Below, in pieces: positions 15,774 through 57,470 of a stretch of 64,000 bases of DNA. A program made the position numbers and the translations under genes. The notes beneath the pieces were generated by a model. The model ran no database searches, had not been told where the DNA came from, and saw only the letters and a list, made by a program, of their open reading frames with translations. The stretch comes from a virus. The DNA lies in IMG/VR virus record IMGVR_UViG_3300045988_081423; one strand, written 5' to 3'. Position 1 is the first letter of the stretch. Each line of letters opens with the position of its first letter.

Positions 15774-15850
15774 CGCAGAATAGCCCAATCAGGTACGGCG
15801 CTTGGTTCATACCCAAGAGATTCTTCGTTCAAATCGAAGTTCTGCACCCA
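15774..15850 (+). tRNA. tRNA with anticodon CAT (Met, initiator-like or Ile2), CCA encoded
   Basis: 77-nt cloverleaf. Acceptor GCAGAA/TTCTGC with a C1-A72 mismatch, U8, D-arm with GG loop. Anticodon stem CTTGG/CCAAG with loop TTCATAC, 5-nt variable loop, T-arm CTTCG-TTCAAAT-CGAAG, then C-CCA. Confidence 0.75.
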
Positions 15851-19763: not shown

Positions 19764-20300
19764 ATGGTATTAAATAACGGTATTGCCCCATGTGGTACGA
19801 TGTCAAGATGTTGCTGCTGTAATATGCGGCTTATTTGTGCTAAATCTCCTTACTGTGTTATAAATTCAGGAAGTTGTTCTTCTGATAAGAAACTGGAAGA
19901 AATTGAAAATCTTATCCAGCAACTAATTCAGTCACAAACACAAGCGCTTGCTGATTTTGAAGCAAAAGCTACTGCCGCTCAAACTAGTTTAAATACAATT
20001 GCTGCTAATATAGCAACATTGCAAACGACTAGTGATAATTTAACGACAACATTTGGTGAATTTTCACAAGATACAAAAACTAAGCTAGATGAAATCTATG
20101 CTAAAGTAGAAAACATACCAGCAACTAGTACAACTTCTATCAATGATTTAGATACGCCAATTGATGTAGATTCTTCTGATGTATCAGAGGATGATTCAAA
20201 ATCACTTGCTGTATTAAAACCAAAAGAAACAGAAGACACTATTTTGGTTGAAAAGAAAGGCTTATTTGGCAAGTCCAAATGGGTAGAACAAAAGAAGTAA
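19764..20300 (+). CDS. Cys-rich N-terminus plus coiled-coil hypothetical protein
   Basis: N-terminus CGTMSRCCCCNMRLICAKSPYCVINSGSCSS, followed by a heptad-like region. RBS AAGGAG. Confidence 0.6.
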   Translation: MVLNNGIAPCGTMSRCCCCNMRLICAKSPYCVINSGSCSSDKKLEEIENLIQQLIQSQTQALADFEAKATAAQTSLNTIAANIATLQTTSDNLTTTFGEFSQDTKTKLDEIYAKVENIPATSTTSINDLDTPIDVDSSDVSEDDSKSLAVLKPKETEDTILVEKKGLFGKSKWVEQKK

Positions 20301-20321
20301 TTTTAAGTTAAATTTTAGAAA

Positions 20322-20373
20322 TTATAGACTCTTTAGTAGGTATAAATTGTTATACTTAGTAAAGTGTCTATAA
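20322..20373. repeat. long imperfect inverted repeat (hairpin; terminator or operator)
   Basis: 24-nt arms TTATAGACTCTTTAGTAGGTATAA and TTATACTTAGTAAAGTGTCTATAA pair at 21 of 24 positions across a 4-nt spacer. A third TTATAGAC lies at 20381. Confidence 0.6.
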
Positions 20374-20507
20374 TATATTGTTATAGACATAATTTGAAAT
20401 TTAACTTACAGGTGTGCACCCGTATGTGCATGAAAGGAAAACATTATGACATTTGGTAAAAATGCGAAGAATAATCACCTTTATATCTGTAAAGAAGGTG
20501 ATGTAGT

Positions 20508-20693
20508 ATGAAGTATGAGAAGGAAAAATATTTCTCTTGCTATTCTCCTAATCTTAAAGAATATCTGGAAAGAAATGGTTTTAAGCCTATTACTTCGTTT
20601 GTACACATCAGAGAGAATAAGACTTGTTGGGTGTTTGAAAAAGTGCCTGAACTATCTATATATCTTGAGCAGTGGACTCGTAATCGCAAGTAA
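20508..20693 (+). CDS. small hypothetical protein
   Basis: 61-aa ORF with an AGAAGGTGA RBS. The alternative frame 20515-20700 is judged spurious. Confidence 0.5.
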   Translation: MKYEKEKYFSCYSPNLKEYLERNGFKPITSFVHIRENKTCWVFEKVPELSIYLEQWTRNRK

Positions 20694-20705
20694 AGGGTAA
20701 ATTAT

Positions 20706-21086
20706 ATGAAAAACATTGTAAGAAATTTTTCTGTTGCTATCGTAGTATTTGTGACTGCATTTATCACAGTTTATTATTCTGTTGTGTATGCAACAAAGAA
20801 ACAGATTATATTTGATGGCTCGGATATTCTAATAATTATTTTCTTTTGCTTATTATCTTTGATGGTCGTGTTTATGCTACTTTATATCAATTCTAAATTA
20901 AACTCATTCTCTAATGCTCTATCTGACATATCCAATAAAATTGATATATCAGAAGAAAACATGATAAATTTAGAAAAGAGTACACAGAGAATTATATTAA
21001 AGGAAGTAAAGGAAAATAGGGAATTTAAGGGAAAAATTTTAGAAAGGATTGAGCATGAAGAGAAATCCGAACAGCAATCGGAGTAA
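20706..21086 (+). CDS. membrane protein (two predicted TM helices plus coiled coil)
   Basis: 126-aa ORF with hydrophobic segments VAIVVFVTAFITVYYSVVY and ILIIIFFCLLSLMVVFMLLYI. It contains direct-repeat copy 1. Confidence 0.6.
   Translation: MKNIVRNFSVAIVVFVTAFITVYYSVVYATKKQIIFDGSDILIIIFFCLLSLMVVFMLLYINSKLNSFSNALSDISNKIDISEENMINLEKSTQRIILKEVKENREFKGKILERIEHEEKSEQQSE
20906..20976 (+). repeat. 71-bp perfect direct repeat, copy 1 (coding)
   Basis: ATTCTCTAATGCTCTATCTGACATATCCAATAAAATTGATATATCAGAAGAAAACATGATAAATTTAGAAA is identical to 21328-21398. Confidence 0.9.
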
Positions 21087-21336
21087 AAGATGGGCAGAAA
21101 GAAATTGTCTATCCTCTGATAGATGTGTGTCTTATGTAAAGGATTTATGTGAAGCTTATGGCCTTAAATATAAAATTTCTGGTGATAAGCTTTTTGTGGA
21201 TTCTGATGGGATTTCCTATCGGGTTTATCCTGACTATGAAAATATATGTATAATTGCAGTTAATAAAATAACTGGTGAGAAAAAATGGTATGATGGGGAT
21301 TCATGTTGGGTTGATTTTGTACTAGATATTCTCTAA
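21055..21336 (+). CDS. hypothetical protein bracketed by the 71-bp repeats
   Basis: 93 aa from the ATG at 21055. Its stop codon lies inside repeat copy 2. Confidence 0.55.
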   Translation: MKRNPNSNRSKRWAERNCLSSDRCVSYVKDLCEAYGLKYKISGDKLFVDSDGISYRVYPDYENICIIAVNKITGEKKWYDGDSCWVDFVLDIL

Positions 21337-21398
21337 TGCTCTATCTGACATATCCAATAAAATTGATATATCAGAAGAAAACATGATAAATTTAGAAA
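21328..21398 (+). repeat. 71-bp perfect direct repeat, copy 2 (mostly non-coding)
   Basis: Identical to 20906-20976, 422 bp downstream. Confidence 0.9.
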
Positions 21399-21404
21399 GA
21401 ACTC

Positions 21405-21433
21405 TTGACAATTTCTATATATTGTGCTATATT
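21405..21433 (+). promoter_or_regulatory. sigma-A-type promoter of the agr-like cassette
   Basis: TTGACA, a 17-nt spacer, then TG-extended TATATT, immediately after repeat copy 2. Confidence 0.65.
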
Positions 21434-21481
21434 AACAATGGAAGCAAATAATTCCATAAAATAACATAAGGAGATATTGTT

Positions 21482-21979
21482 ATGAATATTCCACTAAGTT
21501 TGTTAATTTATAATCCGATTGAAGCGTATACATTAATTTTATTGGGCGATATTATTACAGGCAATGATACGAAATTTAACAAGAAGAGCATTGTGGCTTT
21601 ATGGGTATTTGGAACTGTTAATTTTGTGATACAGTTTTTGCCAAATTTAGTATATGGTGAAAACTGCTTCCTTTTTGTTTCTTTTATTTCAAATTATTTA
21701 ATTATACCAGTATCAATGCTATTTTTCTATAATTTGGTTTCTTTTAAAATTAATTATTTTACTTGTTTAATGTGTCAAATAATAAATTGTTTGTTTATAT
21801 TAATTATAGTAAGTATATTTAATAGTATTGCATATTCTTATAATTTGTTTTGTCCTGCAAACAGATTTCATGAGTTTATTTCTAATTTTGTAATATTCTT
21901 CATGCAAATCATGTTATATACTATTATAAAACATAGGAGATTTTACTATGAAAAATGTTGTAAAAATCATCGCAAATAA
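21482..21979 (+). CDS. polytopic membrane protein (about 5 TM), no soluble domain
   Basis: 165-aa very hydrophobic ORF. Its 3' end overlaps the AgrD-like ORF. It could be an AgrC-sensor-like or immunity/export protein, but this is unproven. Confidence 0.6.
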   Translation: MNIPLSLLIYNPIEAYTLILLGDIITGNDTKFNKKSIVALWVFGTVNFVIQFLPNLVYGENCFLFVSFISNYLIIPVSMLFFYNLVSFKINYFTCLMCQIINCLFILIIVSIFNSIAYSYNLFCPANRFHEFISNFVIFFMQIMLYTIIKHRRFYYEKCCKNHRK

Positions 21980-22079
21980 TTCTGTTGAGAAGGCTTTTAC
22001 ATCTTTTAATTATTATCAGCCTAAAATGCCAAATTCTCTAATGGAAAAGGCTATTAACGAAAATAAGAAGGAGAACTAA
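21948..22079 (+). CDS. agrD: AgrD-like autoinducing peptide precursor (43 aa)
   Basis: AGGAG RBS with 8-nt spacing. MKNVVKIIANNSVEKAFTSFNYYQPKMPNSLMEKAINENKKEN has an amphipathic leader, a candidate 5-residue ring SFNYY, then QPKMPNSL, which resembles the clostridial QPEEPKSL recognition tail. Confidence 0.55.
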   Translation: MKNVVKIIANNSVEKAFTSFNYYQPKMPNSLMEKAINENKKEN

Positions 22080-22118
22080 TCCGACTTATATTATTATAGA
22101 CATTATAGAATAATATAG

Positions 22119-22153
22119 GGGAGTCGGCTTGTTAGCTGGCTCCCTATTTTTTT
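22119..22153 (+). terminator. Rho-independent terminator between the agrD-like and agrB genes
   Basis: Stem GGGAGTCGGC/GCTGGCTCCC (two G-U pairs) with a 6-nt loop, then TATTTTTTT. Confidence 0.75.
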
Positions 22154-22174
22154 GTAAATAAGGAATATTCTGTT

Positions 22175-22780
22175 ATGGATATTTTTAGATATATTGAAGA
22201 CATATCTTATAAACTCGGTTTAAAGGTTGCGAACTATTTCCATGAGGACAGTGATGGAATTGAAGAGACGCAATACGGTATGTTTGCTATTTTAAGCTTT
22301 TTGTTTGAATTTGGAACTGGGCTTATTATATCGCTTATTTTTGGATATGTCAAGTATTTTCTTGTATTTCAAATTACTTATTGTTTTCTACGTTCTGTTT
22401 GCGGTGGTGAACACTGTAAGACATTTGCTTCTTGTTGGGCAGTAACAAACATTATCTCATTTATTGGAAGTATGATGGCTATTTTATTATCCGTAAATAA
22501 TATGTTTGTAATGATTGGAGTTATTATTACATTTCTGTCATCTGTTGATATGTTTTATATTATTCCAAAGCCAAGCGAAAATTCTCCTAGTAGAGGAAGT
22601 AGAGATATTGAGTTTAAAAGACGTTATATTAAGGGAACTTGTGTGCTAATTTTCTTATCTTGTATTTTGGTGTTTTTTAATATGCAATTTGTTTCTGCTT
22701 CTATTTGCTCTGCCTATATTATGTGTTATATTATGCTTTCCAAATATGGAAAGAAATTTATGAATATGTTTAAGTTTTAA
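22175..22780 (+). CDS. agrB: AgrB-family membrane peptidase
   Basis: 201-aa polytopic ORF. LRSVCGGEHCKTFASCW matches the AgrB R-x3-G-x-H-x6-C catalytic His/Cys spacing (S. aureus RRHAHGAHAPSSFWC). The later PKPSENSP...KRRY loop also fits. Confidence 0.8.
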   Translation: MDIFRYIEDISYKLGLKVANYFHEDSDGIEETQYGMFAILSFLFEFGTGLIISLIFGYVKYFLVFQITYCFLRSVCGGEHCKTFASCWAVTNIISFIGSMMAILLSVNNMFVMIGVIITFLSSVDMFYIIPKPSENSPSRGSRDIEFKRRYIKGTCVLIFLSCILVFFNMQFVSASICSAYIMCYIMLSKYGKKFMNMFKF

Positions 22781-22877
22781 TTAATTAAAGACCAGAGGAT
22801 AGAAACATTAAGCTGCTATCACCCATTGTTAGGAGATACAGGTTCTTTGGCTTGCCTGTCTGGTCTTTATTATTTAT

Positions 22878-23225
22878 AATTGTAGTCGTACAATTGTGGG
22901 ACGCTATAGGCTCTTTGTGTTCTATGATTGTAGGTATCTACAAACTATAAGAGTTTGTAGTTTCCATTAAATAGCCTACCAGACTTAGTTACCAGAAATG
23001 ATAACTACGATATTTAGGTTATGACACCCTCGGTTGACGCAACAGACCGTCGCTCTGTCGTATATATTTAAGTTAGGTTGGAGTAATAGTAGCCTTGTGA
23101 TATATACGCTAAAGCCTTTATATCATTGTCGAGTTGAGGTCGGAAAAGCTATGTGGTAATAGTATAGCAATACGCACAACCATTACATAAGTAATGGAGT
23201 TATTTTTACGAAAGGGGTGTCTAGT
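22878..23225 (+). ncRNA. candidate IscB omega-RNA (guide plus scaffold)
   Basis: About 350 nt without a credible ORF, directly 5' of iscB on the same strand and dense in hairpins (22938-22960, 22986-23007, 23098-23125, 23181-23196). Its position matches known IscB omega-RNAs. Confidence 0.6.
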
Positions 23226-24482
23226 ATGGTATATGTATTGAATATTGATGGACAACCGCTTATGCCAACTACTAGGCACGGTAAAGTCAAACATCTTCTA
23301 AAAGATGGTAAGGCTAAAGTAGTTAAGCGTTGTCCATTCACAATTAAACTTCTATACGAGACTCCTAATTGCACACAAGATTTAACTCTTGGGATTGATA
23401 CAGGAAGTGGCGCAATAGGAACTGCCGTTTCTACCGATGATGGCGAAATAGTTTATATGTCGGAAGTAGTTGTTAGAAATGACATTACTGACAAAATGAC
23501 TCAAAGGGCCAAATACCGCAGAAATAGACGTAGCAGAAAAACTCGTTATAGAAAAGCAAGATGGCTAAATCGCAAAAATTCAATTAAGAAGGATAGATTT
23601 AGTCCCACGATGGTAAGTAAACTCCATAGCCACGTTAAAGAAATAGAATATATCAAATCTATTCTCCCTATAACTACTATGGTCTTTGAAACAGGAACAT
23701 TTGATACTTACCTTATGAAAAATCCAAGCCTTGTAAATGAAAATGTAAGACATTGGGGATACCAAAAAGGAACAAATTATGGGTTTGAAAATACCAAGGC
23801 TATGGTTTTAAATCGAGATAATTATACTTGTCAGTATTGCAAAGGTAAACATAAAGATAGTAAACTGGAAGTTCATCATATTGTGTTTCGCAGCAAACAT
23901 GGTTCAGACGAAGAAAGTAATTTGATTACACTTTGTCATACTTGCCATAAGGCGTTGCATAGTGGTAAAATTAGTCTTAAATTAGAAGGTAAGGTCAAAG
24001 GGAATCTAAAATATGCTACACAGATGAATAGTATTCGTAAACAATTATTTAGAATCTACTCGGAAGCAATTGAAACTTTTGGTTATATAACAAAGGCAAA
24101 TCGTCTAAAACTTGGAGTAGATAAAGAGCATTTTTATGACGCTTGTGTTATTGCAACACATGGAAATAAATTTAGCGTAAGATGCAATTTATACAAAAAG
24201 AAATGTGTTTCAGATGGGGATTTTCAACAGACTAAGGGAGTTCGTTCTGAGCAGCGCATTCCAACGTGTAAAATTCAGGGGTTCAGAAAGTTTGATAAGG
24301 TGAGATATTTTGGTAAAGAATATTTTATAAAAGGAAGGCTTTCTACTGGGTATGCAATACTTATGGATATAGATGGTAATAAATCCGATTTTTCTTATAT
24401 GCCGAAAGGTTTTAAAACGCCTAAAATTATAAATCTAAAAAGATTAGAAGCTCGTTCATCGTGGATAGTAATTTTTAAATGA
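23226..24482 (+). CDS. iscB: IscB RNA-guided endonuclease (PLMP, split RuvC, HNH)
   Basis: DGQPLMPT; LGIDTGSG; RAKYRRNRRSRKTRYRKARWLNR; MVFETGTFD; CQYC..EVHHIVFRSKHGSDEESNLITLCHTCHKALH; HFYDACVIA; C-terminal FDKVRYFGKEYFIKGR..GY. RBS AAAGGGG. Confidence 0.88.
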   Translation: MVYVLNIDGQPLMPTTRHGKVKHLLKDGKAKVVKRCPFTIKLLYETPNCTQDLTLGIDTGSGAIGTAVSTDDGEIVYMSEVVVRNDITDKMTQRAKYRRNRRSRKTRYRKARWLNRKNSIKKDRFSPTMVSKLHSHVKEIEYIKSILPITTMVFETGTFDTYLMKNPSLVNENVRHWGYQKGTNYGFENTKAMVLNRDNYTCQYCKGKHKDSKLEVHHIVFRSKHGSDEESNLITLCHTCHKALHSGKISLKLEGKVKGNLKYATQMNSIRKQLFRIYSEAIETFGYITKANRLKLGVDKEHFYDACVIATHGNKFSVRCNLYKKKCVSDGDFQQTKGVRSEQRIPTCKIQGFRKFDKVRYFGKEYFIKGRLSTGYAILMDIDGNKSDFSYMPKGFKTPKIINLKRLEARSSWIVIFK

Positions 24483-24522
24483 CATAAAAATAATTGTACG
24501 ACTATTTTTGTGAGGTGGTCGT

Positions 24523-24789
24523 ATGATTATAAATGATTTAGCAACAATAGCAAATTCTGATTTAATATCAGGAGCTGCAAACATTAGTCAATTTATAAAT
24601 GTCTATCAAGCGACTAAAGGTGCGACATCATCTCAGTTAAATACAGAGCTAATCAAGCAAAACCAGCATATTGAAAATAAACTTGACGAACAAACGAATA
24701 TGTTGCTTGAAAAATTATTGTCTGAATTAAAGATTATAGAAGAACAAAATATTGAAATAATTAAACTTCTGGATGGTGGCGTCAAATGA
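24523..24789 (+). CDS. hypothetical coiled-coil protein (paralog pair with the next gene)
   Basis: 88-aa ORF. Its C-terminal EEQNIEIIKLLDGG resembles NENEKTIISLLQGI of the next ORF. Confidence 0.55.
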   Translation: MIINDLATIANSDLISGAANISQFINVYQATKGATSSQLNTELIKQNQHIENKLDEQTNMLLEKLLSELKIIEEQNIEIIKLLDGGVK

Positions 24790-25010
24790 TTCTTAATACT
24801 AATGCAGAATTAGGTGGATTAGATGCTATTGGTGTTGCAGACACGATTATTGCTTCATTGTTATTGAATTATTCAGAGAAATCTTATAAGTTAAATCTTG
24901 ATAACACCTCGGAAAATAAAAAGGTTATTTCTCTATTAAACGAAATAAATGAAAATGAAAAAACTATTATTTCCTTATTACAAGGAATAATAGAAGATAA
25001 TAAGCATTAG
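24786..25010 (+). CDS. hypothetical protein
   Basis: 74-aa ORF with a 4-nt overlap on the previous gene. Confidence 0.55.
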   Translation: MILNTNAELGGLDAIGVADTIIASLLLNYSEKSYKLNLDNTSENKKVISLLNEINENEKTIISLLQGIIEDNKH

Positions 25011-25152
25011 TCTTGTCTTATCGGTAAAATAATCCAGACTGAAATAAACGAGTGACGGTTTTGACTCGTTGTAAAAATAAAAATTGACCGAGCGATGATT
25101 CACGATATGGAATAAAAGGGGTCAAAAATATTATAGAAAGTAGTGGGTATCA

Positions 25153-25623
25153 ATGGATGTATTGCAAATTATTATTAATATTTGCTCTACTTTTGGTGTG
25201 TCTGGACTTCTTTTGTTCTTTGTGAAAAGGCACTATGAAAAGGAAGACGGGGCTTTAAAAGAGGAAAAACAGGAGAGAAGAGAAATTAAGGATGCGATTG
25301 ATAAAATTGCTAAACAAAACGAAGAGCAGTATGCAATGATTGCATTTCAAAATGATAAGATAAGTTCTCTTTCTGATGACGTAAAGGCTTTAAGAGAACA
25401 AGGAAGTCAAAATTCTCAGGCAGACAGAGATATGCTTCGGGATGCTATGCTAAGAACATATCATAACTGTTATGAGGTAAAAGGATGGATTTCTGTTAAT
25501 GACTTAGAAAGTTTTCAACATATGTTTGAGAGCTACACGGCATTACATGGGAATGGTATGATTCCGAGTGTGCGTGAAAAAATTATGAGTTTACCAACTA
25601 TCCCTCCTGAGAACAAAACATAA
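25153..25623 (+). CDS. membrane-anchored coiled-coil protein
   Basis: 156-aa ORF with the N-terminal TM segment ICSTFGVSGLLLFFV. Confidence 0.6.
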   Translation: MDVLQIIINICSTFGVSGLLLFFVKRHYEKEDGALKEEKQERREIKDAIDKIAKQNEEQYAMIAFQNDKISSLSDDVKALREQGSQNSQADRDMLRDAMLRTYHNCYEVKGWISVNDLESFQHMFESYTALHGNGMIPSVREKIMSLPTIPPENKT

Positions 25624-25646
25624 TAAGAAATACTTAAATTTAAAGA

Positions 25647-28433
25647 ATGGAGGTATCCGATGTGATAGAACAAGAAATTACGTTGCTTACTAATGGTAGA
25701 ATTTCTTTCCAGAAATGCGGGAATGGTCTACAGTTTGGATATTCTAAAAATCGTGGTGTATACAGTATAAAAGTAAAAACTTCTGGTGAATGGAATGGTT
25801 TAACGATTCGCGCATTTTGGCATATCCCGGACATTAAAGAGCCAATCACCTCTTTATTAGTAGACAATGTTATTAGAGTTCCTGCATTGGTTACTAGTTA
25901 TAAAGGTGAGGGGAGGATTGTATTTGAGGGTTCCGATGGAGTCAAAACTGTAACGAGTGCAGACATTCGCTATTATGTAAACAAAAATAGCGGAACCTGT
26001 GACGGTACAATTCCAGAACCGGGAACGCCAGCTTGGCAAGAGCTTGTTGGCACTGTAAAGAAATATTCCGATACTGCTGTTGAAGCAAAGGAGTCTGCTA
26101 AAAAATCAGCGGATGAAGCAAAACAAGCTCTTGAAGATACAAAAGATGTAAAGAGTCAGGCTATTGAAGAAATTAATTCTTCAAAAACTGCGGTAATCGA
26201 AGAGATTGAGAACAAAAAAAATTTATCAATTGAAGAAATTAACAGTGTAAAAGAAGATGCAAAAGGAGAGCTAGAGACCCTTTGTGATTCTACCCGGGAT
26301 TTTGCAAATCAGGCAAAAGAAGCCGCAGACAGAGCAAAAGCAAGCGAACTTGCCGCAAAAGACTCTGAATTAAAATCTAAAGAAAGCGAAAGACTGGCAA
26401 GTGAATACAAAAATTCAGCTAATGAAAGTGCAAACGCTGCATTAAAATCAGAAGAGAACGCTTCAATAAGCGAATCTAATGCGACCGAGGCAGCCAATAG
26501 AGCATTGATATCTGAAAATAATGCAAAATTATCTGAGACAGCCAGTGATAATAGCTCTAAAAAAGCATTTGATAGCGAAACAAAAGCAAAAGCATCCGAA
26601 ATAAATTCTTCAAATAACGCTGTCAACGCAGAACACTCTGCAATAAATGCTGCGGCATCGGCTGATGCCGCAAAAGGCTCTGAGGACAAAGCAAAAACAA
26701 GTGAAATTATTAGCACAGCAAATACGGCAGAAGTAGCAAAAAATCTTGAAACAGTCAGGGATATTAAAGCCGAGATTGACATCTTAGACGCTAATGTGTC
26801 GGCTAATGCGGCAAGTTCAAATGAAAATGCGAACAATGCAAGAATCAGTGCGGAGGCAGCAAAACAATCTGAGACGAATGCTGCATTAAGCGAGGCGTCT
26901 GCTTTAGAGAGCAAAAATGCTTCTGCGGAAAATGCTGCAAAATCTCAAAATAACGCCTCTAACGCAAAAAATAGTGCAGATAGCGCAAAAGAAAGTGAAA
27001 CAAAGGCACAAGAATATTCTAATTTATCTCAGTCCAACGCTAATGCTTCGAGTGAGTCTGCAAGTAATGCAAAAGCAAGCGAAGGTGCTTCAAAAAAGAA
27101 CGCAGACGATTCTGCGGCTACCCTACAAGAACTGAAAGACGGAATTGCATCTGGAAACTTTAAAGGCGAGAAAGGTGACAAAGGCGACCCCGGCCCGGCA
27201 GGCAAAGATGCCCCGCAAATTGATGATACCACCGTGAACGACTCTGCCCCATGGAGCAGCAAGCACATCGTGGATGTGCTCTGCCCACCGATGGAGGAGA
27301 CCGGAAACCCCGTGACGTGCTACCCGGTGGAAAGTTATCCGCTGGGGGTGACTGCCAGCTGGGAACCGACGCAGGAAGGCAGCGGTGACCCATCGCCTGA
27401 CAATGTTCGCCCAATTAAGGGCAGGGACAGCGTGACAGTGGAGCGGTGCGGGAAGAATCTGCTAAAATTAAATGAACGAATTATCGACAAAGAAACAGTG
27501 ATACTCAAAGAAAACGACCTTGTTTTCCTGTCAAAATGTTTTCACGGCAAGGACGTGACGCTCACATTTGCCTGTGACACGAAAGATATTGTTTTCTCGG
27601 ACACAGCGGAAAAATGGAGAAAAAGAATCGGATATGAATGTCATGGTTTTTTGGACGATGGAACTGAGGTATGGTCTCTCCAATGCTGGCTGACTGATGG
27701 ACAAGACAACCTTACAAGAAATGGAAAGCATAAAAAAACTGTTACTTTGAAGATGCCGAACATTGTGAAAGGCACGATTAACTTTTATGCTCAAAATATA
27801 AAATCCGGCACCTTCACAGCGTATGATTTTGGAATCTACGCGGGCGGCACATTGCCAGATAATCTTGCACAATACAACGGTGTATCTGTGCCACTAGCCT
27901 TCCCCTCCACCATCTACGGCGGGACGGTGGATGCAGTGAGCGGTGAGAGCAGTAGAACATGGCGAACTATTACTTTGACAGGCGAAGAAAGCTCTCATAT
28001 TTATTCGACAATTTTCTATCTTGATTTCAATAAAGACAGTTCCTTTGTGGCAGAAGAACCTGTTGACTTAGCAACTGGCAAAAGCAGCCACTATCGCTAT
28101 ACGACATATGCGAATGATTCAGTAGGAGTCACATTAGATGGATATTCCGTGGTGTATTCCAGCAATGGCAAGTATCCTATATCTGATGAGGGTTTACGAG
28201 AATGGAAATCCTACCTCGCCGCCCAGTACGCGGCAGGAACACCTGTCCAAATCGCCTACAAGCTGGCAACTCCAACGCCTTTCACCGCAACCGGCGCACA
28301 GCCTATCTCTTCTCTGAGCGGCGTGAACACCCTAATGACCGACGCGAACAATGTAACCGTTACCGGCAGAGCAGACCCCATCAAGCGCATCACTGACCTT
28401 GAGGACGCTGTGGCATCAATGACCAACACATAA
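25647..28433 (+). CDS. tail fibre / receptor-binding protein with Ala/Ser-rich coiled repeats and a collagen-like stretch
   Basis: 928-aa ORF. About 350 aa of A/S/E/N/K heptad-like repeats, then GEKGDKGDPGPAGKD, then a GC-rich C-terminal domain. The likely true start is GTG 25662, 8 nt after GGAGG. Confidence 0.75.
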   Translation: MEVSDVIEQEITLLTNGRISFQKCGNGLQFGYSKNRGVYSIKVKTSGEWNGLTIRAFWHIPDIKEPITSLLVDNVIRVPALVTSYKGEGRIVFEGSDGVKTVTSADIRYYVNKNSGTCDGTIPEPGTPAWQELVGTVKKYSDTAVEAKESAKKSADEAKQALEDTKDVKSQAIEEINSSKTAVIEEIENKKNLSIEEINSVKEDAKGELETLCDSTRDFANQAKEAADRAKASELAAKDSELKSKESERLASEYKNSANESANAALKSEENASISESNATEAANRALISENNAKLSETASDNSSKKAFDSETKAKASEINSSNNAVNAEHSAINAAASADAAKGSEDKAKTSEIISTANTAEVAKNLETVRDIKAEIDILDANVSANAASSNENANNARISAEAAKQSETNAALSEASALESKNASAENAAKSQNNASNAKNSADSAKESETKAQEYSNLSQSNANASSESASNAKASEGASKKNADDSAATLQELKDGIASGNFKGEKGDKGDPGPAGKDAPQIDDTTVNDSAPWSSKHIVDVLCPPMEETGNPVTCYPVESYPLGVTASWEPTQEGSGDPSPDNVRPIKGRDSVTVERCGKNLLKLNERIIDKETVILKENDLVFLSKCFHGKDVTLTFACDTKDIVFSDTAEKWRKRIGYECHGFLDDGTEVWSLQCWLTDGQDNLTRNGKHKKTVTLKMPNIVKGTINFYAQNIKSGTFTAYDFGIYAGGTLPDNLAQYNGVSVPLAFPSTIYGGTVDAVSGESSRTWRTITLTGEESSHIYSTIFYLDFNKDSSFVAEEPVDLATGKSSHYRYTTYANDSVGVTLDGYSVVYSSNGKYPISDEGLREWKSYLAAQYAAGTPVQIAYKLATPTPFTATGAQPISSLSGVNTLMTDANNVTVTGRADPIKRITDLEDAVASMTNT

Positions 28434-49934: not shown

Positions 49935-51755
49935 ATGGCACAAGCACAAAGCGATTTATTTAGTTTTCTAATTACACCAGAATTTGATACAAAAGATGTT
50001 ACAGATAGCGCACAAATACTACAAAAAGAGCTTGAAAAAGTTGCAGAAAAAATATCAATACAAATAAGTAAAGCAATGGGAAAGGGTTTTTCGTTCCCAT
50101 CTGGTTTTCAACCAAAAGATATTAATGAAGTAACAAAATATATCGAAACCCTTGGGGGCAGCGTCAAACGTGTTGGAACTGTCATAACTTCTTCTTTCAA
50201 AGATGCAAGCGGAACAGTAACAACCCTAAAACAAAACATCAACGACGCTATAAATTCTGCTCAGTTGGCAAGCCTACAATCTATGAGTGGAAATCCTAAG
50301 AATATAGATATTATAAATAAACAGTATGCTCAACTAAGAAGTTCTAGTGCTACATACACTGGAACGGAACAGGTTAAGCAACAAAACGAATTAGAACAAC
50401 AGATTATTAAATCTTTGCAAGAGCGATATAGCTTAGAGGGTAAAATATCAGACGCAAAAGCAAGCGGAAACAAGATTACAGAAACTTATTATACGCAACT
50501 AAGAGATATTGCTGTTGCAGAAGAACAACAATTAGAATCACAATATAAAGGTTCTCAAACACGAATAAATTCCGTGAAACAGCAGTTGTCTCTTGAACAA
50601 CAATTGCGACAACAAAAGGCACAATCTACTGCGGAAGAAAATAAAGCTGTTGAGGCCATAAAACAATACGCAAAACAATATCAGACTGTCAAGCAATTAG
50701 AGAGCAAAGGTCAACAAAACACTCAGGCTTATACTGATGCTAAAAATGCTTTACAGCAGTTAACAAATACTTTAACAACGTATGGTGTTAAAGTTGTAAC
50801 AAGCTCCGACGGCACAACAAAACTTGTAGCACAACAAAATTCAATGGCTGACAGCTCCAATAAGGTTAAAACAGCGTTGGACAATGCCAATGGCAGTTTA
50901 GTAAAAACTGATACTGCACAAAATTCCCTATCGCAATCTATTCAGTCTAGTGTAGAGAACTTTATTAAATATCAGGTGGCTATGGAAGCCATCAACAAAA
51001 TCACTAGCGAATTCACATCTGCAATTTATGATATGAACGAAGCCATGACACAGGTTCGTATGGTTACAATGGGTAGCTATGAAGATACTGTGGCATTGGC
51101 TGATAGTTATACTAAATTGGCAAAGCAACTTGGTACTACTACGACCACAGTTGCAGAAGGTGCAGATGCTTGGTTAAGACAGGGTTATAATGCTCAAGAA
51201 GCAATGGAGATGCTAAAACAGTCAACTACGTTGGCTGTTGTTGGTCAATTGGACGCAAGCGAGGCGACTGACCAACTCACTGCAATCACAAAATCCTATA
51301 ATGTAGCTGTAGACGATACAAGCAAAATCGTAGATAAACTTGTGCAAGTAGACCTTTCCTACGCGGCCAGCACAGGTGAAATTTCTACAGCATTACAGAA
51401 AGTCGCTAGTTCTGCTGGACAGGCGGGGTTAGGACTTGATAAACTAATCGGTCTAATTACTATTTCTGAGGAAAAGACTCGACAAGCGCCAGAAGTTATT
51501 GGGTCTGCTTGGCAGAGTATCATCTCGCGTATATCAAAAATCACGGCAAAAGTAGATTTGGATGACCTCGTTGATGAGCAAGGTATAACCCACACAATCA
51601 ATGATGCAGATAAAGTTCTATCCAAATACGGAATTACACTAGTTGATACAAACGGTAAAATGCGCGAAATTGGTACTGTTCTTGATGAAATCGGTGCAAA
51701 ATGGAACAGCATGAGCACTCTTGAACAGAACCAGTTGGCTTATGTTGTCGCCGGT
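49935..51755 (+). CDS. tape measure protein, exon 1 (3' end within about 5 nt)
   Basis: Gln/Ala-rich coiled coil followed by the conserved TMP core (...LGTTTTTVAEGADAWLRQGY...EQNQLAYVVAG). Exon end GCCGGT can pair with GCTGGC at 51765-51770 (P1 with a U-G pair). Confidence 0.7.
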
Positions 51756-53138
51756 TCGATAAGTGCTGGCGTAAAACGTACTTAATTGACGGGAAACCCC
51801 TTTAGAGTCTTGACAACTAAGTTATTATAGTGATATAATAATGGTTGGAAGTAATCAATCCAAGTATAGTAAAATAGTCAAGAATTGGGCAACCCGCAAC
51901 CAAGCAACTATGAAAATAGTTGAAGGCTCAACGACTATCCAGTTAGCGTTAAATTAACGCAATAGGAGTAGGGCGCAATTCGCTACTGCGTGGGTGAAAA
52001 CCCCTTAAATCGAAATGGTACGGCATATCATAGATATGCAAGATATAGTCTATTCTCATGCAAAAGCATGAGCATTTTTATGTTATATTGAGGTTATAAA
52101 TGGGAAAAGTAATCAGATGGACAGACGAAGAAATTCAATTATTAAAAGAGCATTATCCTAATGATTCATGGGATAATATTTTATCTTTTATTCATAGAGA
52201 AAAAGGAAATATTATTACCAAAGCAAGTAAACTTGGAATCGTAAGGAATAGTCCAAATAAAAAGATTGAATGGTCTGACGAAGAGGTTGAAATTCTTAGA
52301 GGTGTTTATCTAACAACAAGGCTAGAAGACATTCCGAGACTGCATTTACCAAATAAATCCAAAGATGCCATTATTAGAAAAATGGGAGAACTAAGGTTGC
52401 TAAAATCAAAACCTTGGACACAAGGAGAAATAGAAAAATTTATCAAATTATATCCAAACACAGACAATAAAGAACTTTGTAAAATATTTGGAAGAACAAA
52501 GAATGCCATAATCAACGAATCTCAAAAACTTAATTTATATAAAAGCAATAGATTCACAGAGGAAGATATTGCTTTTATAAGAAACAACTATCTTAAAATG
52601 TCAGATTTTGAAATCGGAGAAATTCTCGGCCATCATTGGAGAGTCGTAAAGGATAAGCGTTTGTCTTACGGATGGAAACATTCTGAACCAATCTTAGGAC
52701 AAGGATATAAAAGTATTGTTGAATTTTGTCGTAAAAGCACACCCGGTTGGAGAAATGAGAGTATTGCATATTGTAATCATAAATGTGTAATCACAGGAGA
52801 AGAATTTGACGACGTTCATCATCTTTATTCTGCGAATCTCATTATAAAAGAAGTCGCAGACATTATTCCTCTTGAACCAAACGCTTCTCCCGAAATGTAT
52901 GACGAGGAATATCTTGGAGAGATTCTTGACTTATTTGATAAGAAACAGCGAGAGTATGGACACGGAGTTTGTTTGACAAAAGAAATTCATACGATGTTTC
53001 ATAAAGAATATGGATTCGGGAATAATACAAAAGGACAGTTTCTTGATTTCGTAGATAAACATAGTTTTAAATTATTAGTCGATATAACATAATATACAAA
53101 GATAGCAACTTTGTGAAATAAATAACAAAACAAGACAG
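51756..53138 (+). mobile_element. group I intron in tmp carrying an HNH-type endonuclease in its 3' part
   Basis: Core blocks AACGACTATCC (51930), CAATAGGAGTAGGGC (51960), GTGGGTGAAAACCCCTTAAATCGAA and AAGATATAGTCT (52040) are nearly identical to the rnap intron. Confidence 0.7.
52100..53092 (+). CDS. intron-encoded endonuclease: three W(T/S)DEE Myb/SANT-like repeats plus C-terminal HNH-like motif
   Basis: WTDEEIQLL, WSDEEVEIL and WTQGEIEKF repeats. C-terminal CVITGEEFDDVHHLYS ... CLTKEIHTMFHKEYG. Confidence 0.65.
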   Translation: MGKVIRWTDEEIQLLKEHYPNDSWDNILSFIHREKGNIITKASKLGIVRNSPNKKIEWSDEEVEILRGVYLTTRLEDIPRLHLPNKSKDAIIRKMGELRLLKSKPWTQGEIEKFIKLYPNTDNKELCKIFGRTKNAIINESQKLNLYKSNRFTEEDIAFIRNNYLKMSDFEIGEILGHHWRVVKDKRLSYGWKHSEPILGQGYKSIVEFCRKSTPGWRNESIAYCNHKCVITGEEFDDVHHLYSANLIIKEVADIIPLEPNASPEMYDEEYLGEILDLFDKKQREYGHGVCLTKEIHTMFHKEYGFGNNTKGQFLDFVDKHSFKLLVDIT

Positions 53139-56100
53139 CGCAACGTCTTTATTGCTGCTATGGAGGATTATAACCGTGTATTAGAAGCAACTGAAGTTGC
53201 AGAAAATGCAAACGGTGTTGCCGCTGAAAAGATGACGGTTTATAACGAGTCTCTTGAAGCTGCACAAAATAGATTAACCGCAAGTGTTCAACAATTTGCA
53301 CAGGATTCTAACCTTGATAGAACCCTTGCATTAGCCTACGACGGTCTGTCCAAAATCGTAGAAATTCTAAATATTTTACTAAATAAAATTCCAGTTTTAA
53401 GTCCACTAATTAAAGCCCTTGGTGTTGCTCTAGCAACAGCTTTCGCAGGCAATATACTTAAAAATATATGGGAGACATCCAATTTAATCGGGCAACTTCC
53501 AAGTCTTGCGATGACTGCCACAAGTGCGATTGGGGCGCTAAATACAACATTATTTACAATAGGTTCTGTTGCAGTACCAATATGGGGTGTAGTAGCAGCC
53601 ATTACCGCCATTGGAGCTGTTGCGAAAGTTGCATGGAACGCTTGGAAAGATGCTCAACCAGAGGCACAAATCAAAAAAGCAAACGAAGCCTTGCAAGAGA
53701 GCCAACAGAGTCTTGATGAGACAAATAATAAAATAACTGAAATTAACAAACAAATCTCAGAAATCAACTCTAAAGGTACTTTAACTTTAGCAGATGAGCA
53801 ACAAAAAGAGAACCTTCAAGAGCAACTTGATTTGCTCGAAGAAATTAAAACAACACAAGAAGCTATAAATAAAGAAAAATCTGCACAGGCATTATCTGCC
53901 GAACAAGCAAAAGCTAAAAAAATGACACCATATAGTTCAGAAGATGTGTCTCAGTATCAAGCAGGGCTTCAATCTACACAAAATTATGCGACCGCAATAT
54001 CTACTGAAAATATAAACGAATTGATTGCGGCATATCAACAACTTGAGAAAGAAAAGAAAAATCTGAACTCAGCAGACGAAGATTATGCAGAACAATTAAA
54101 AACCAACGAACAACTAACATCTTCTTTTACCACAAAGTTGTTAGAGCAAAAACAGTCTTACCTAGATGAGATGAAGGCTCTTTCAAATTTAGGAGATACA
54201 AGTTCAGAAACATATAAGGCGTTACAGCAAGCTGTTGACATGATAAATGTCACACTTGACCCGTCTAATTTTGAAACACTTAAAGTCCAAAATCTAATTG
54301 ACACATCTGGAATTGAAGACAAAATTAAAGAGGCTGTTCAGGCTGGCGATAAAGCCGGTGGCGAAATGGCTACGGCATACGCTAAGAGTTTCGCAGAAAA
54401 AATATTAAAAGATACTAGCATGAAACAATCGTTTGCTGAGGCAATGGGTGTCAACGTAAACGAGTTAAATATAGACAATTTAACACAAGAAATCCTCAGC
54501 AAATTCCAACAGATGTATAATAATATTTCTGATGGATACAATGATGTTGTACAGAATGTTTTTAGTAAAACAGATGTTGTTAGTGCTTATGCTAGTATTC
54601 TTGAAAAAGTAAACGAAAAGACAAAGGTTTTGTCAAAAGCATACAAAGAATTGACGAAACAGGGTAGCTTAACGACTGACACAACTCAAAAACTTATCGA
54701 ACTATACCCAGACCTTGCAAAACAACTTGATTTTACAAGTGGTAAAATTACTCTCAATGTAAACGTTCTTAAAGACCTCTATAATGCAGAATACAAGTCC
54801 GCAGAAGCAACGGTTAAGGCAGAAATTCAAAAAACAAAAGCTACTATTGCTGGCGTAGAAGCAAGAATTGCGGCACTAGAAGCAGAGAAACAAAAACTTC
54901 TGCAAACTTTAGATGCGGGTGTTTTAAGCGGTCGAGATGAGGCGTTTGCCGAAAAGCAAATGTTGCTTCTTGAGCAATCTGGTTCTAAAGCTAATGCGAA
55001 TTTGGAAAAAGCGGAAGAGCATTTAAAAGATTTAAATAGTTTACTTGGTCTTGTTCAAAACACTGCAAAATCTGGGCTAGGCTCCGGTACAAAGGATAGC
55101 TCTTCTGGGAAATCTGGTAAATCTGCCGCTGATAAAGCTGCAAAAGAATTTGAGAATGAAATCAAAGAAAAGGTTCAAAACCTAAAGAGTATTGTACAGT
55201 TGTATTCTGAGAATGCTAACTGGGATGACCCAACTGTCATCAAAGAGTTCCAAGACAGATACGACAAAATCTTAAATGAAGTCATAAACGACCCAAAAGC
55301 CAGAAAAGTTCTAGCTGATGCGTTTAATCTTGATATAAGCAATATGCCAGTTGAACAACAAATTCAAGAACTAACAACGCTATGGCAAAAACAAGCTGGT
55401 ACAATTCAAGAATCGTATCAAAAACTTCTAAAGAATCTAGCTAAAGAAGATTTGAGTTCTGCCAAGGCTGTTATAGAAAAATATAAAAATGGTATTTATG
55501 GCGCTTGGAGTTCTGACGAAGCACTGAATGCAGCAAAAGCTGATTATCAGAAGTTTATTGACAAAATCACCAATGACGCAGATTACAGAGCTGCTATGGC
55601 AGAAGCGTTAAACCTTGGGGATATTAGTGGAGAACCAGTAGAGAAACAAGTAGAAGCTGTTATAAACGCCTTACTAAAGTCTACTGGTACACTTGATAAC
55701 ACCCAGCAAGACCTATATGATGACGCTTCTAAGAATATCAAAGCATTACAAGATGAAATCGAGGACATGATTGATACAGCAATCGGTTTGCTTGAAAAGG
55801 CTGGCGATTTTCTGTTTGATATGTTGGATAAGATTTCTGACAGATATGATGCTCAGATTGACAATCTTGATAAGATTTCTGACGAACTTGATGACCAAAA
55901 AGATGCCTTTGAAGATAAGATTGACCAGCAAAAAGAACTCCTGAAACTTCAAAAAGAAGAGATGGATAACGCTGACGAGCTTGCTGAAAAGAATAAATCT
56001 ATTGCAGATATTGATGCCCAATTGATGGAATTGCAATATGACAATTCAGCGGAAGCACAGGCTAAACGTCTTAAACTTCTCGATGAAAGAGCACAAAAAG

Positions 56101-57470
56101 AAAAAGACCTTGCTGATTGGCAAAAAGATAACGATTATAATACCAAGATTGACGCCCTTGATAAAGAAAAATCAGAATATGAAAAGACAATTGAAGCAGA
56201 AAAGAAAGCAATAGAAGCACAAAAACAAACTTTGCAAGATGCTCAGAAACAATTTGAAACTACTCTGGGGAATATCCAAAATGGTTTCAATACATTTATT
56301 AAAATTCTTAGTAGTGATTTTGTCAAGAACCTAATTAGCAAAGCACTAATTGGCACTGGTCAAGATACAGTGACACAATTGCTTACTGGTTATAATAAAT
56401 TATTTGGTACTGGTATTGATTCTGACGTAACTGGGATAATCAAAGAAGGATATAAAAGTCTAGCAGATATTGGTAGTGACACGCTAAATAATGTTTCAAA
56501 TTATAATAACAGAATTGTCAAGAGTGCGACAAAAGGTATAAAAAGTATTATCAGCAATACGACAAATGGCGTTAAGTCTATTTTTGATTCCAGTAATGGA
56601 TTTATGAAAAGATTAACATCTAATGGTATATCTTCGCTAAATACGATTGGGACAAATGGCAAGGGAATTATTTCCAGTCTAGCTGGAACGGCAAATAGTT
56701 TACTGAGCAATTTGAATAGATTTGCCAGTGGGATAGGGCAGATTGCAACCAAAGGCATATCTGGTATATTCTCTGGTATTGGAGGAATGACTAGTGGAGT
56801 TGCAGGCGGTATGGGAGGCATTGGTTTAGCTGGTGCTGGCCTATCTAGCGCACTTCCAATCGCTGCAATAGGAGCGGGTGTTTTGTCTGGTGCTTTGGCA
56901 AATGTTAGTACATGGTACAATAACATCAAGCTCTGGAAAGACAAAGACAAATCTACTGGTAAAAAAATACTTGGAACAATCGGAAATCTGATACTCCCTT
57001 TCTTGCCCGGTGGTATGCTGATATCAGCCGGGAAAGCCCTATCTAGTCTATTTAAAAAACACCATACTGGTGCTGATTATGTAAAAAAACAGAATCCTAT
57101 GTTGGACAAAATGTTAGGACTCGGAAGTGACGAGACTGTATCCATTCTAAAAGTTGGAGAGGCTATTGTGCCCACATGGGCAAATGGAGCAAATAGTTCC
57201 GGCAGCAGTAATAGATTTACGGGAAGTCCATTTGGAAGTGCTGTAGACTCTGCCGTTAAAACCGCAAGAGTAAATACCAGAACGTACTCTAGTTCCAACA
57301 GCTCTTCTATTAATATCTCTATGCCTATTAATATTCAGGGAGACGCAGATGCTTCTACTGTAAACTCTTTGAGGAAAGAGGCAGACAACATTGTGAATAA
57401 AGTTCTAAAAACTATCAATAACCAAACTAGAATTGGTGGCTATAGAAATATAAAAGCAGCAACGATTTAA
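53139..57470 (+). CDS. tape measure protein, exon 2 (5' end within about 5 nt)
   Basis: The frame is open upstream of ATG 53160 (..RQRNVFIAAMEDY) and continues the TMP core. No RBS precedes the ATG. Long coiled coils, TM-like segments and Gly-rich regions are typical of TMPs. Confidence 0.75.
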   Translation, partial: RNVFIAAMEDYNRVLEATEVAENANGVAAEKMTVYNESLEAAQNRLTASVQQFAQDSNLDRTLALAYDGLSKIVEILNILLNKIPVLSPLIKALGVALATAFAGNILKNIWETSNLIGQLPSLAMTATSAIGALNTTLFTIGSVAVPIWGVVAAITAIGAVAKVAWNAWKDAQPEAQIKKANEALQESQQSLDETNNKITEINKQISEINSKGTLTLADEQQKENLQEQLDLLEEIKTTQEAINKEKSAQALSAEQAKAKKMTPYSSEDVSQYQAGLQSTQNYATAISTENINELIAAYQQLEKEKKNLNSADEDYAEQLKTNEQLTSSFTTKLLEQKQSYLDEMKALSNLGDTSSETYKALQQAVDMINVTLDPSNFETLKVQNLIDTSGIEDKIKEAVQAGDKAGGEMATAYAKSFAEKILKDTSMKQSFAEAMGVNVNELNIDNLTQEILSKFQQMYNNISDGYNDVVQNVFSKTDVVSAYASILEKVNEKTKVLSKAYKELTKQGSLTTDTTQKLIELYPDLAKQLDFTSGKITLNVNVLKDLYNAEYKSAEATVKAEIQKTKATIAGVEARIAALEAEKQKLLQTLDAGVLSGRDEAFAEKQMLLLEQSGSKANANLEKAEEHLKDLNSLLGLVQNTAKSGLGSGTKDSSSGKSGKSAADKAAKEFENEIKEKVQNLKSIVQLYSENANWDDPTVIKEFQDRYDKILNEVINDPKARKVLADAFNLDISNMPVEQQIQELTTLWQKQAGTIQESYQKLLKNLAKEDLSSAKAVIEKYKNGIYGAWSSDEALNAAKADYQKFIDKITNDADYRAAMAEALNLGDISGEPVEKQVEAVINALLKSTGTLDNTQQDLYDDASKNIKALQDEIEDMIDTAIGLLEKAGDFLFDMLDKISDRYDAQIDNLDKISDELDDQKDAFEDKIDQQKELLKLQKEEMDNADELAEKNKSIADIDAQLMELQYDNSAEAQAKRLKLLDERAQKEKDLADWQKDNDYNTKIDALDKEKSEYEKTIEAEKKAIEAQKQTLQDAQKQFETTLGNIQNGFNTFIKILSSDFVKNLISKALIGTGQDTVTQLLTGYNKLFGTGIDSDVTGIIKEGYKSLADIGSDTLNNVSNYNNRIVKSATKGIKSIISNTTNGVKSIFDSSNGFMKRLTSNGISSLNTIGTNGKGIISSLAGTANSLLSNLNRFASGIGQIATKGISGIFSGIGGMTSGVAGGMGGIGLAGAGLSSALPIAAIGAGVLSGALANVSTWYNNIKLWKDKDKSTGKKILGTIGNLILPFLPGGMLISAGKALSSLFKKHHTGADYVKKQNPMLDKMLGLGSDETVSILKVGEAIVPTWANGANSSGSSNRFTGSPFGSAVDSAVKTARVNTRTYSSSNSSSINISMPINIQGDADASTVNSLRKEADNIVNKVLKTINNQTRIGGYRNIKAATI

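Follow-up and report, generated by a model that had tools for sequence, protein, structure and literature searches.

The RNA-guided nucleases IscB and TnpB are understood as helpers of transposon retention, and the pairing of IscB with an omega-RNA, the HEARO family of such RNAs, the logic of target-adjacent motifs (TAMs) and the restoration of donor sites are already established. The omega-RNA lies at the right end (RE) of the transposon, and the TAM is common to the transposase TnpA and to IscB (Meers et al., PMC10055086). Among human-gut enzymes, ATAAA is the optimum TAM of OrufIscB, and the effective guide length of gut IscBs is ~13-14 nucleotides (nt) (PMC13180657); for OgeuIscB, mismatches to the guide at positions 1-14 abolish cleavage and those at positions 15-16 are tolerated (PMC9640706). 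Spread in phages by a route that depends on the nuclease and not on TnpA has been raised as a theoretical possibility only (review PMC13565253). Here we describe an IscB locus at positions 22876-24528 of a 64,000-nucleotide stretch of phage DNA, IMG/VR virus record IMGVR_UViG_3300045988_081423 ("the window" refers throughout to this whole stretch). The locus is probably a TnpA-independent, fixed-guide, RNA-guided homing cassette, with cleavage and homing predicted from sequence comparisons between genomes that carry it and relatives that do not (the "occupied" and "empty" genomes of the text below).

The IscB gene and its omega-RNA

The nuclease gene and the RNAs that precede it are laid out as follows (aa, amino acids; ORF, open reading frame).

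22788-22867, plus strand: skipping-rope RNA (RF02924), 47.7 bits against a gathering score (GA) of 36.7, directly after an agrB-like gene
22852-22880, plus strand: sigma-70-like promoter, TTGCCT-17-TATAAT, matching 10 of 12 consensus positions and conserved in empty relatives
22930-23207, plus strand: omega-RNA scaffold, made up of a HEARO core (22930-23144) and two further helices, the second of them a terminator-like hairpin with a T-run (23180-23197)
22938-22960, 22986-23007, 23098-23125 and 23180-23197: hairpins, the first with a 9-bp stem and the second corresponding to paired columns 63-82 of the alignment described below
23226-24482, plus strand: iscB ORF, 418 aa, with an alternative GTG start at 23217
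IscB residues: PLMP 11-14, LGIDTG 55-60, Arg-rich helix 94-116, VFETG 153-157, CQYC 202-205, EVHHIV 215-220, CHTCH 237-241, EHFYDAC 301-307

The motifs of the encoded protein follow the domain order PLMP, RuvC-I, bridge helix, RuvC-II, HNH, RuvC-III and C-terminal TAM-interaction region. Its match to the NCBIfam equivalog model guided_IscB (NF040563, RNA-guided endonuclease IscB) scores 335 bits (E 4e-100) against a curated cutoff of 175 bits and takes in positions 1-313 of the 314 in the model, and the Pfam models RRXRR (173 bits, E 7e-51) and HNH (45.9 bits) are matched as well. The top matches among solved structures are IscBs, with OgeuIscB at E~5e-42. Alignment with OgeuIscB pairs LGIDTG with LGIDPG, VFETG with VLELN, EVHHIV with HYHHVV and EHFYDAC with DHYLDAY, and the residues are identical at the RuvC-I Asp, the RuvC-II Glu, the HNH His-His and the RuvC-III His/Asp, i.e., at the catalytic residues D58, E155, H217/H218 and H302/D305 of the window protein. 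The full match to the IscB model, together with the aligned RuvC and HNH residues, therefore rules out a simple HNH homing endonuclease, and it is essentially certain that the protein is an IscB paired with an omega-RNA. A first-pass annotation of this DNA, made from the letters alone, had already read 23226-24482 as an IscB with these motifs, and the profile search against IscB- and Cas9-type families that it proposed bears out that reading. RNA-guided, TAM-dependent cleavage of double-stranded DNA would be within the reach of such a protein, with the prerequisites that can be recognized at the level of sequence (guide, TAM and catalytic residues) all in place.

The same annotation placed an IscB omega-RNA directly upstream of the gene and named four hairpins in the region, all of which were found, the last of them (given as 23181-23196) at 23180-23197. 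The covariance scan that it recommended for the upstream region matched the Rfam family of IscB omega-RNAs, HEARO (RF02033), at 22930-23144 over the full model (1-211), with a score of 76.3 bits (E 6e-15). Nine relatives from viral contigs have HEARO matches of 72-109 bits at an equal distance from the start of their own iscB genes, and an alignment of ten sequences, extending from the first scaffold base as far as the start codon, shows compensatory changes at 39 of 69 consensus pairs, with every helix kept by the omega-RNA of the window. Covariation was used here because the fold of the single sequence (z = -1.7) is uninformative by itself. The Rfam model of HEARO does not include the downstream elements (Meers et al., PMC10055086), and the 3' end of the omega-RNA is predicted to lie at about 23207. 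At the Rfam gathering thresholds, a scan of the whole window reports no HEARO (below GA) and no skipping-rope RNA (presumably owing to filters), and the local scan is the relevant one.

The structured region drawn in the first-pass annotation extended too far upstream, in that the omega-RNA begins at 22930 and the segment 22788-22867 is a separate, native skipping-rope RNA, conserved in occupied and empty relatives alike. Skipping-rope RNAs form an orphan class to which no function has been assigned. In the window the 3' stem of the motif runs into the -35 element of the promoter-like site at 22852-22880, and it is from this native promoter that the omega-RNA and iscB are likely to be transcribed.

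The cassette, its target copies and the empty site

The cassette measures 1653 bp (22876-24528) and consists of the omega-RNA scaffold and iscB set between two unequal copies of a phage target sequence.

22876-22929, plus strand: left target copy, 54 nt, composed of ATAATTGTAG, 30 cassette-specific nt and TGTGTTCTATGATT
22886-22915: the 30-nt segment specific to the left copy, TCGTACAATTGTGGGACGCTATAGGCTCTT, found in occupied contigs only
22914-22929, plus strand: guide segment TTTGTGTTCTATGATT, recognized by its position relative to the scaffold start and its match to empty alleles
24483-24489, plus strand: CATAAAA, the junction at which the truncated element meets the right target copy
24490-24528, plus strand: right target copy, 39 nt, ATAATTGTAC...GTGAGGTGGTCGTATGATT, carrying the GGTCGT allele and adjoining ATAAATGATT
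24523-24789, plus strand: downstream 88-aa phage gene, which the original insertion parted from its first two codons, now supplied again by the right copy
24529-24533, plus strand: ATAAA target-adjacent motif, the original insertion point, from codon 3 onward of the 88-aa gene

Empty sites were found in 24 relatives of the same phage family, comprising a deposited gut phage (MT835481, ~90% identical) and 23 viral or metagenomic contigs. In these the skipping-rope RNA is followed by TTATTTATAATTGTAGAACCNGTTTNAAAGAGGTG(TGTTCT / CGTTCT / GTCGT)ATGATT/ATAAATGATT..., with ATGATT as the start of the 88-aa gene (here and below, a slash before or after a run of bases marks the insertion point or a junction). 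The occupied contigs, ~11 in number (the window and ~10 others), all have the same 1653-bp replacement. In the left copy the ribosome-binding site (RBS) of the native site has been replaced by an unrelated sequence (GGCTCTT), and the right copy, the sequence of which was found in occupied contigs only, gives an RBS and the first two codons (ATG ATT) back to the downstream gene. Family searches with the 88-aa product gave no assignment. One occupied contig (L104, from ERZ1034768) is missing ~126 nt inside this gene (right flank +89 to about +215), and the gene may therefore tolerate internal deletion.

The first-pass annotation had taken subterminal palindromes and a direct repeat to be the ends of an insertion sequence. 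Both features are present (the palindrome AATTGTA-GTCG-TACAATT at 22878-22895 and ATAATTGTA at 22876 and 24490), but their role as element ends was rejected because ATAATTGTAG occurs in every empty site; what had been read as ends is target sequence of the phage, present in duplicate on either side of the element. The two target copies share a perfect inverted repeat of 13 nt (22883-22895 and 24492-24504), and this repeat and the 30-nt left segment may be the repair scar of the event that built the cassette. An origin of the 30-nt segment by a single inversion or fold-back was considered and set aside: pieces of it match in reverse complement, but their order does not fit. Recombination between the ATAATTGTA repeats as a way of losing the cassette was likewise set aside, the empty allele of the right-copy type that it predicts not having been found.

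Where the element itself begins can be seen from its relatives. Across 37 IscB loci in viral contigs, conserved sequence starts exactly at the first base of HEARO, with unrelated sequence upstream; the scaffold opens with GTGAAC... in relatives and with GTAGGT, at 22930, in the window. The guide-side (RE) boundary is thus at 22929/22930, and the alignment with related phages that lack the insert, which the annotation had proposed for fixing the ends, agrees: the left junction reads ...TATGATT/GTAGGT, as compared with ...TATGATT/ATAAATG in empty genomes. A canonical relative (79% aa identity; L010, L011 and L036) illustrates the ancestral mode of insertion. Its seven empty sites (L115-L121) read ...GCGAACTTATA/ATAAATAAGAAC and its occupied sites ...GCGAACTTATA/GTGAAC...omega-RNA...iscB...hairpin...GAATATTT/ATAAATAAGAAC, i.e., a precise insertion that starts with the first HEARO base, lies immediately 5' of ATAAAT and duplicates nothing. 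From this comparison it follows that members of the clade insert precisely 5' of ATAAA(T) and that the flank 5' of the scaffold serves as guide.

At the other end the window departs from its relatives. These have a conserved end of ~55 nt with a scaffold-like hairpin (CGCCATTCATCCCATCACCTAAAGGTAATGGG...TTT) directly after the stop codon, many have ATAAA-like motifs adjoining this conserved right end, and within the window's own subclade iscB is followed by a Y1 transposase (Pfam Y1_Tnp, 112-119 bits) or its remnants. In the window the hairpin end is absent, and the stop codon gives way to CATAAAA and then to phage sequence; similarity to relatives stops at ~24473, within the final iscB codons, the last few of which are new. 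The CATAAAA junction may be a remnant of the extreme terminus of the element plus the ATAAA motif. A search of the window for a second copy of the 22938-22960 hairpin found none, and tblastn of the window with the TnpAs of two relatives gave no significant match, as the first-pass annotation, which reported no TnpA, would lead one to expect. Among the marks of an IS200/IS605 element, then, the locus has an RE boundary at the scaffold start beside a TAM, and it has neither the second (left-end, LE) hairpin, nor a Y1 (HUH) TnpA in the window, nor duplication-free insertion, nor multiple copies at different sites.

These observations bear on the view that the cassette is an ordinary non-autonomous IscB element of the IS200/IS605 type, moved by a TnpA encoded elsewhere, with IscB serving only to restore the donor site ("peel, paste, cut, copy"). 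In keeping with this view, the guide-side junction is canonical, and so is the ATAAA motif; most iscB genes, too, have no tnpA nearby (PMC10055086). However, the far-end hairpin that TnpA needs is missing, as is TnpA from the window, the element is known from one locus only and always with the same junctions, and its precise excision would regenerate none of the observed empty alleles. Moreover, a set of 185,579 species-representative genomes contains no near-identical copy (best 81% aa), only a handful of relatives with 68-81% identity in metagenome-assembled genomes. We regard this explanation as very unlikely.

The guide segment can be compared directly with the three natural target alleles of the empty site (GGTGTGTTCTATGATT, GGTGCGTTCTATGATT and AGGTGGTCGTATGATT, each followed by ATAAATG). 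It is identical to the commonest of these at 14 of the 14 TAM-proximal positions, with differences only at positions 15-16 and with ATAAA next to the match. In the second allele position 12 is mismatched as well, and the third allele and the right copy of the cassette are mismatched with the guide at positions 8, 9 and 12-16. No other site within three mismatches of the guide was found in the window. The cassette's own two copies should not be cleavable under the rules known for IscB, since the left copy, which abuts the scaffold, has no TAM, and the mismatches of the right copy to the guide include some inside positions 1-14. By analogy with characterized enzymes, the ribonucleoprotein (RNP) should cut the unoccupied allele of a sister phage and spare its own genome. 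Guide and target copies are invariant across the eight occupied contigs that were compared. The annotation's idea of a guide copied from flanking phage DNA stands, and only its location has to be moved, from beside the palindrome to 22914-22929.

The right copy retains TATGATT+ATAAA, and one might picture the system as a domesticated regulator, in which the RNP would bind this copy without cutting it (through ATAAA and a seed of 7 nt, which together span the start codon) and would tune the downstream genes. Binding by dIscB is driven by the TAM and has little seed requirement (Meers et al., PMC10055086), which fits such a role. All of the nuclease residues have been kept, however, unlike those of known nuclease-dead regulatory derivatives, and we consider a regulatory role extremely improbable.

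Distribution across phage backgrounds

In the eight occupied contigs the cassette is identical in length and 99.3-99.9% identical in sequence, and it resides on at least 3-4 phage backgrounds, between which the 1.5-kb flanks are only 70-81% identical. Measured in 150-bp bins, identity between backgrounds is 98.7-100% across 22839-24638 and 90-96% in the adjoining bins on both sides. Flank haplotypes are common to occupied and empty genomes (the window with L106; L002 and L080 with L089, L101, L103 and L113), and the haplotype match reaches to within 50 nt (L098) or ~80 nt (others) of the cassette on its right side and to within ~25 nt on its left. The window and a second occupied contig, L005 (IMGVR_UViG_3300029230_000006), compared over 20300-27100, have essentially identical 2.6-kb flanks and differ by eight single-nucleotide polymorphisms in the cassette. 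The same two genomes are only 90-95% identical at 22091-22388, in the 5' part of agrB, and the pattern as a whole looks like replacement of local segments independent of the backbone.

An element far less diverged than its flanks, present on several backgrounds, bears the mark of horizontal spread. The data fit a recent entry of the cassette into several genomes that had already diverged, involving recombination, short conversion tracts and purifying selection; population patterns of this kind do not prove that cutting by IscB was the driver. It could be argued that the cassette is a stranded and irrelevant remnant, an insertion that was rescued by duplication and that hitch-hikes through the general recombination of mosaic phages. 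TnpA and one end have indeed been lost, and the flanks are strongly mosaic. Against such an origin, the iscB ORF is intact in 8/8 occupied contigs, in which its 21 coding polymorphisms show a synonymous excess (13 synonymous to 8 non-synonymous), the protein has kept its catalytic residues and the omega-RNA its helices, and the guide does not vary. A plateau of near-identity limited to the cassette also requires that the cassette spread recently between backgrounds, an outcome not predicted by neutral hitch-hiking, and we judge the remnant explanation quite unlikely.

The homing cassette that we favor would account for these patterns as follows. In a cell that contains both an occupied and an empty phage genome, IscB and its omega-RNA would cut the empty allele near the start codon, and the break would be repaired from the occupied genome with the copying of the whole cassette, under the direction of a fixed, self-carried guide and with no need of TnpA. 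As would be expected of a homing element, the cassette is present or absent at one locus, the empty allele has the predicted recognition site and the occupied allele appears to be protected. An alternative outcome of the cut would be that the competitor genome is simply lost. The first-pass annotation had suggested homing or the cutting of competitors as roles for the nuclease, and the existence of occupied and empty alleles, with a near-identical cassette across backgrounds, is consistent with that suggestion.

If loss of the competitor were the rule, the cassette would be better described as a weapon of phage against phage, by which the RNP destroys relatives with the unoccupied allele to the gain of the carrier, the copying of the cassette being incidental or absent. 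The target logic is equal to that of homing, and the polymorphism of the spacer between RBS and ATG (three alleles, of which two have mismatches in positions 1-14) would be in line with selection for escape. Pure exclusion leaves unexplained, though, how the cassette came to lie on several backgrounds with flanks that match those of empty genomes to within tens of bases. The two readings do not exclude each other; as an account of its own, the weapon is in our estimation unlikely.

How the homing cassette may have arisen is suggested by its two sides, which are of the A type on the left (ATTATT, TGTGTTCT) and of the B type on the right (GGTCGT). The ancestor would have been an IscB(-TnpA) element of the IS200/IS605 type, inserted canonically between ...TGTGTTCTATGATT and ATAAATG..., after codon 2 of the downstream gene, in a phage (perhaps a prophage) with the TGTGTTCT allele. 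A single unequal crossover with a genome of the GGTCGT type would then have fused iscB, at its 3' end, to sequence that starts shortly before ATAATTGTA, and at one stroke would have deleted TnpA and the far end, restored the downstream gene and created the guide-resistant copy.

Several considerations weigh against homing as we have presented it. The intermediates looked for in viral and metagenome contigs (a canonical element at the site, a duplicated site without the element, and cassette-specific segments outside occupied contigs) were not found; the searches yielded the known occupied structure or plain empty sites and nothing else. These phages are mosaic, and ordinary recombination with selection or hitch-hiking could spread a single cassette. 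The isogenic empty genomes of the L002 background carry the position-12 mismatch and may be uncleavable. The mismatch rules are those of OgeuIscB, a distant relative of the window IscB, the C-terminal tail of which is ~6-10 residues shorter than in its relatives, and the HEARO score of 76.3 bits is less than the Rfam gathering score of 83. Finally, contigs from IMG/VR and ENA may overlap, and the counts of occupied and empty genomes are not counts of independent samples.

IscB-like genes as such are by no means foreign to phages. We confirmed 374 IscB-like stretches in IMG/VR, and PHROG 119, which is labeled "HNH endonuclease", is a large IscB-like group; HEARO is already listed in annotations of Staphylococcus phages. 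The remark in the first-pass annotation that a phage-resident IscB is not a standard phage feature was overstated in this light, and it holds for deposited phage records, among which relatives are rare (8/50,697). In three of the relatives, on large viral contigs (L007, L016 and L018), iscB lies inside an array of tRNA genes, with tRNA genes flanking it on the contig, and in another (L009) a Pistol ribozyme at 174-246 (57 bits) is situated ~2.5 kb upstream of the IscB locus.

Elsewhere in the window the following features were observed.

15774-15847, plus strand: single tRNA gene, 53 bits
21948-22079, plus strand: 43-aa ORF just upstream of the AgrB homologue, which might be a candidate AgrD-like propeptide
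22175-22780, plus strand: phage-encoded AgrB homologue (PF04647, 91 bits)
49935-51785 and 53160-57470: parts of an apparent tape-measure gene, split by the next two features
51731-52072, plus strand: group I intron (RF00028), 54.8 bits
52100-53092, plus strand: 330-aa ORF with an HNH-like motif

The group I intron and the ORF with the HNH-like motif would constitute a second homing-type element of the same phage.

Comparison with known systems

The locus departs from the canonical kind in having neither TnpA nor a second end, in carrying a fixed guide, and in a target duplication that would both repair the interrupted gene and confer immunity, and it occupies a single site at which occupied, susceptible and mismatched alleles segregate within one phage family. 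We tentatively suggest, at a little under even chances, that we are looking at a natural RNA-guided gene drive at work in one population of human-gut phages, one that has shed its transposase and one end, frozen its guide, acquired a guide-resistant target copy that repairs the gene, and spread by cleaving co-infecting relatives at the unoccupied allele. On this reading, resistance to the drive would be conferred by the alleles mismatched at position 12 or at positions 8, 9 and 12-14. The locus makes RNA-guided homing from phage to phage directly testable, with near-isogenic occupied and empty genomes, a 14-nt target plus ATAAA, a built-in resistant copy and naturally occurring alleles that are candidates for resistance. 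A second point of interest is the path that it illustrates from a transposon-borne OMEGA nuclease to a homing endonuclease of fixed specificity, which bears on the domestication of RNA-guided nucleases; a third is that many phage proteins labeled "HNH endonuclease" (PHROG 119) are in fact IscBs.

The closest described systems are the IscBs of IS200/IS605 (ISC) elements, e.g., OgeuIscB (PDB 7UTN/7XHT) and the IscB of ISGst5, which have the same domain order and catalytic motifs and likewise have a HEARO-type omega-RNA directly upstream, a guide taken from RE-flanking DNA and an AT-rich TAM 3' of the target. In contrast to these, the cassette is without TnpA and the LE hairpin, carries both its guide flank and a mismatched target copy, has a guide that is fixed and not re-specified with each transposition, and is found at a single locus in a phage family, not as a multi-copy insertion sequence. 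The clade of OrufIscB and other human-gut IscBs (Kannan et al. 2025, PMC13180657) also comes from the human gut, and its TAM, ATAAA, is the motif at the insertion site in the window. In sequence OrufIscB itself is related to the window IscB only moderately closely (9NVU chain, E 4.5e-31, a weaker match than OgeuIscB), and that study did not deal with its natural context and biology.

With respect to mode of spread, two other systems invite comparison. The "gene drive" by which TnpB spreads IS605 among plasmids (Mears et al. 2025, as cited in PMC13565253), together with the concept of "transposon non-restorative homing", has in common with our proposal for the cassette that a vacant orthologous site on a replicon in the same cell is invaded by means of the RNA-guided nuclease and not of TnpA. 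The TnpB drive has been shown for laboratory plasmids and an IS that is otherwise intact, whereas the cassette involves IscB and natural phages, with the transposition parts deleted and the target duplicated. The free-standing homing endonucleases of the T-even phages (SegA-G and Mob; "intronless homing") are likewise encoded by nuclease genes between conserved phage genes, and they likewise show presence/absence polymorphism, discrimination of self from non-self by differences in target sequence, and short co-conversion tracts. Recognition by the cassette would differ from theirs in depending on a guide RNA and a TAM in place of protein, and its own copy would be protected by mismatches to the guide and by the separation of target from TAM.

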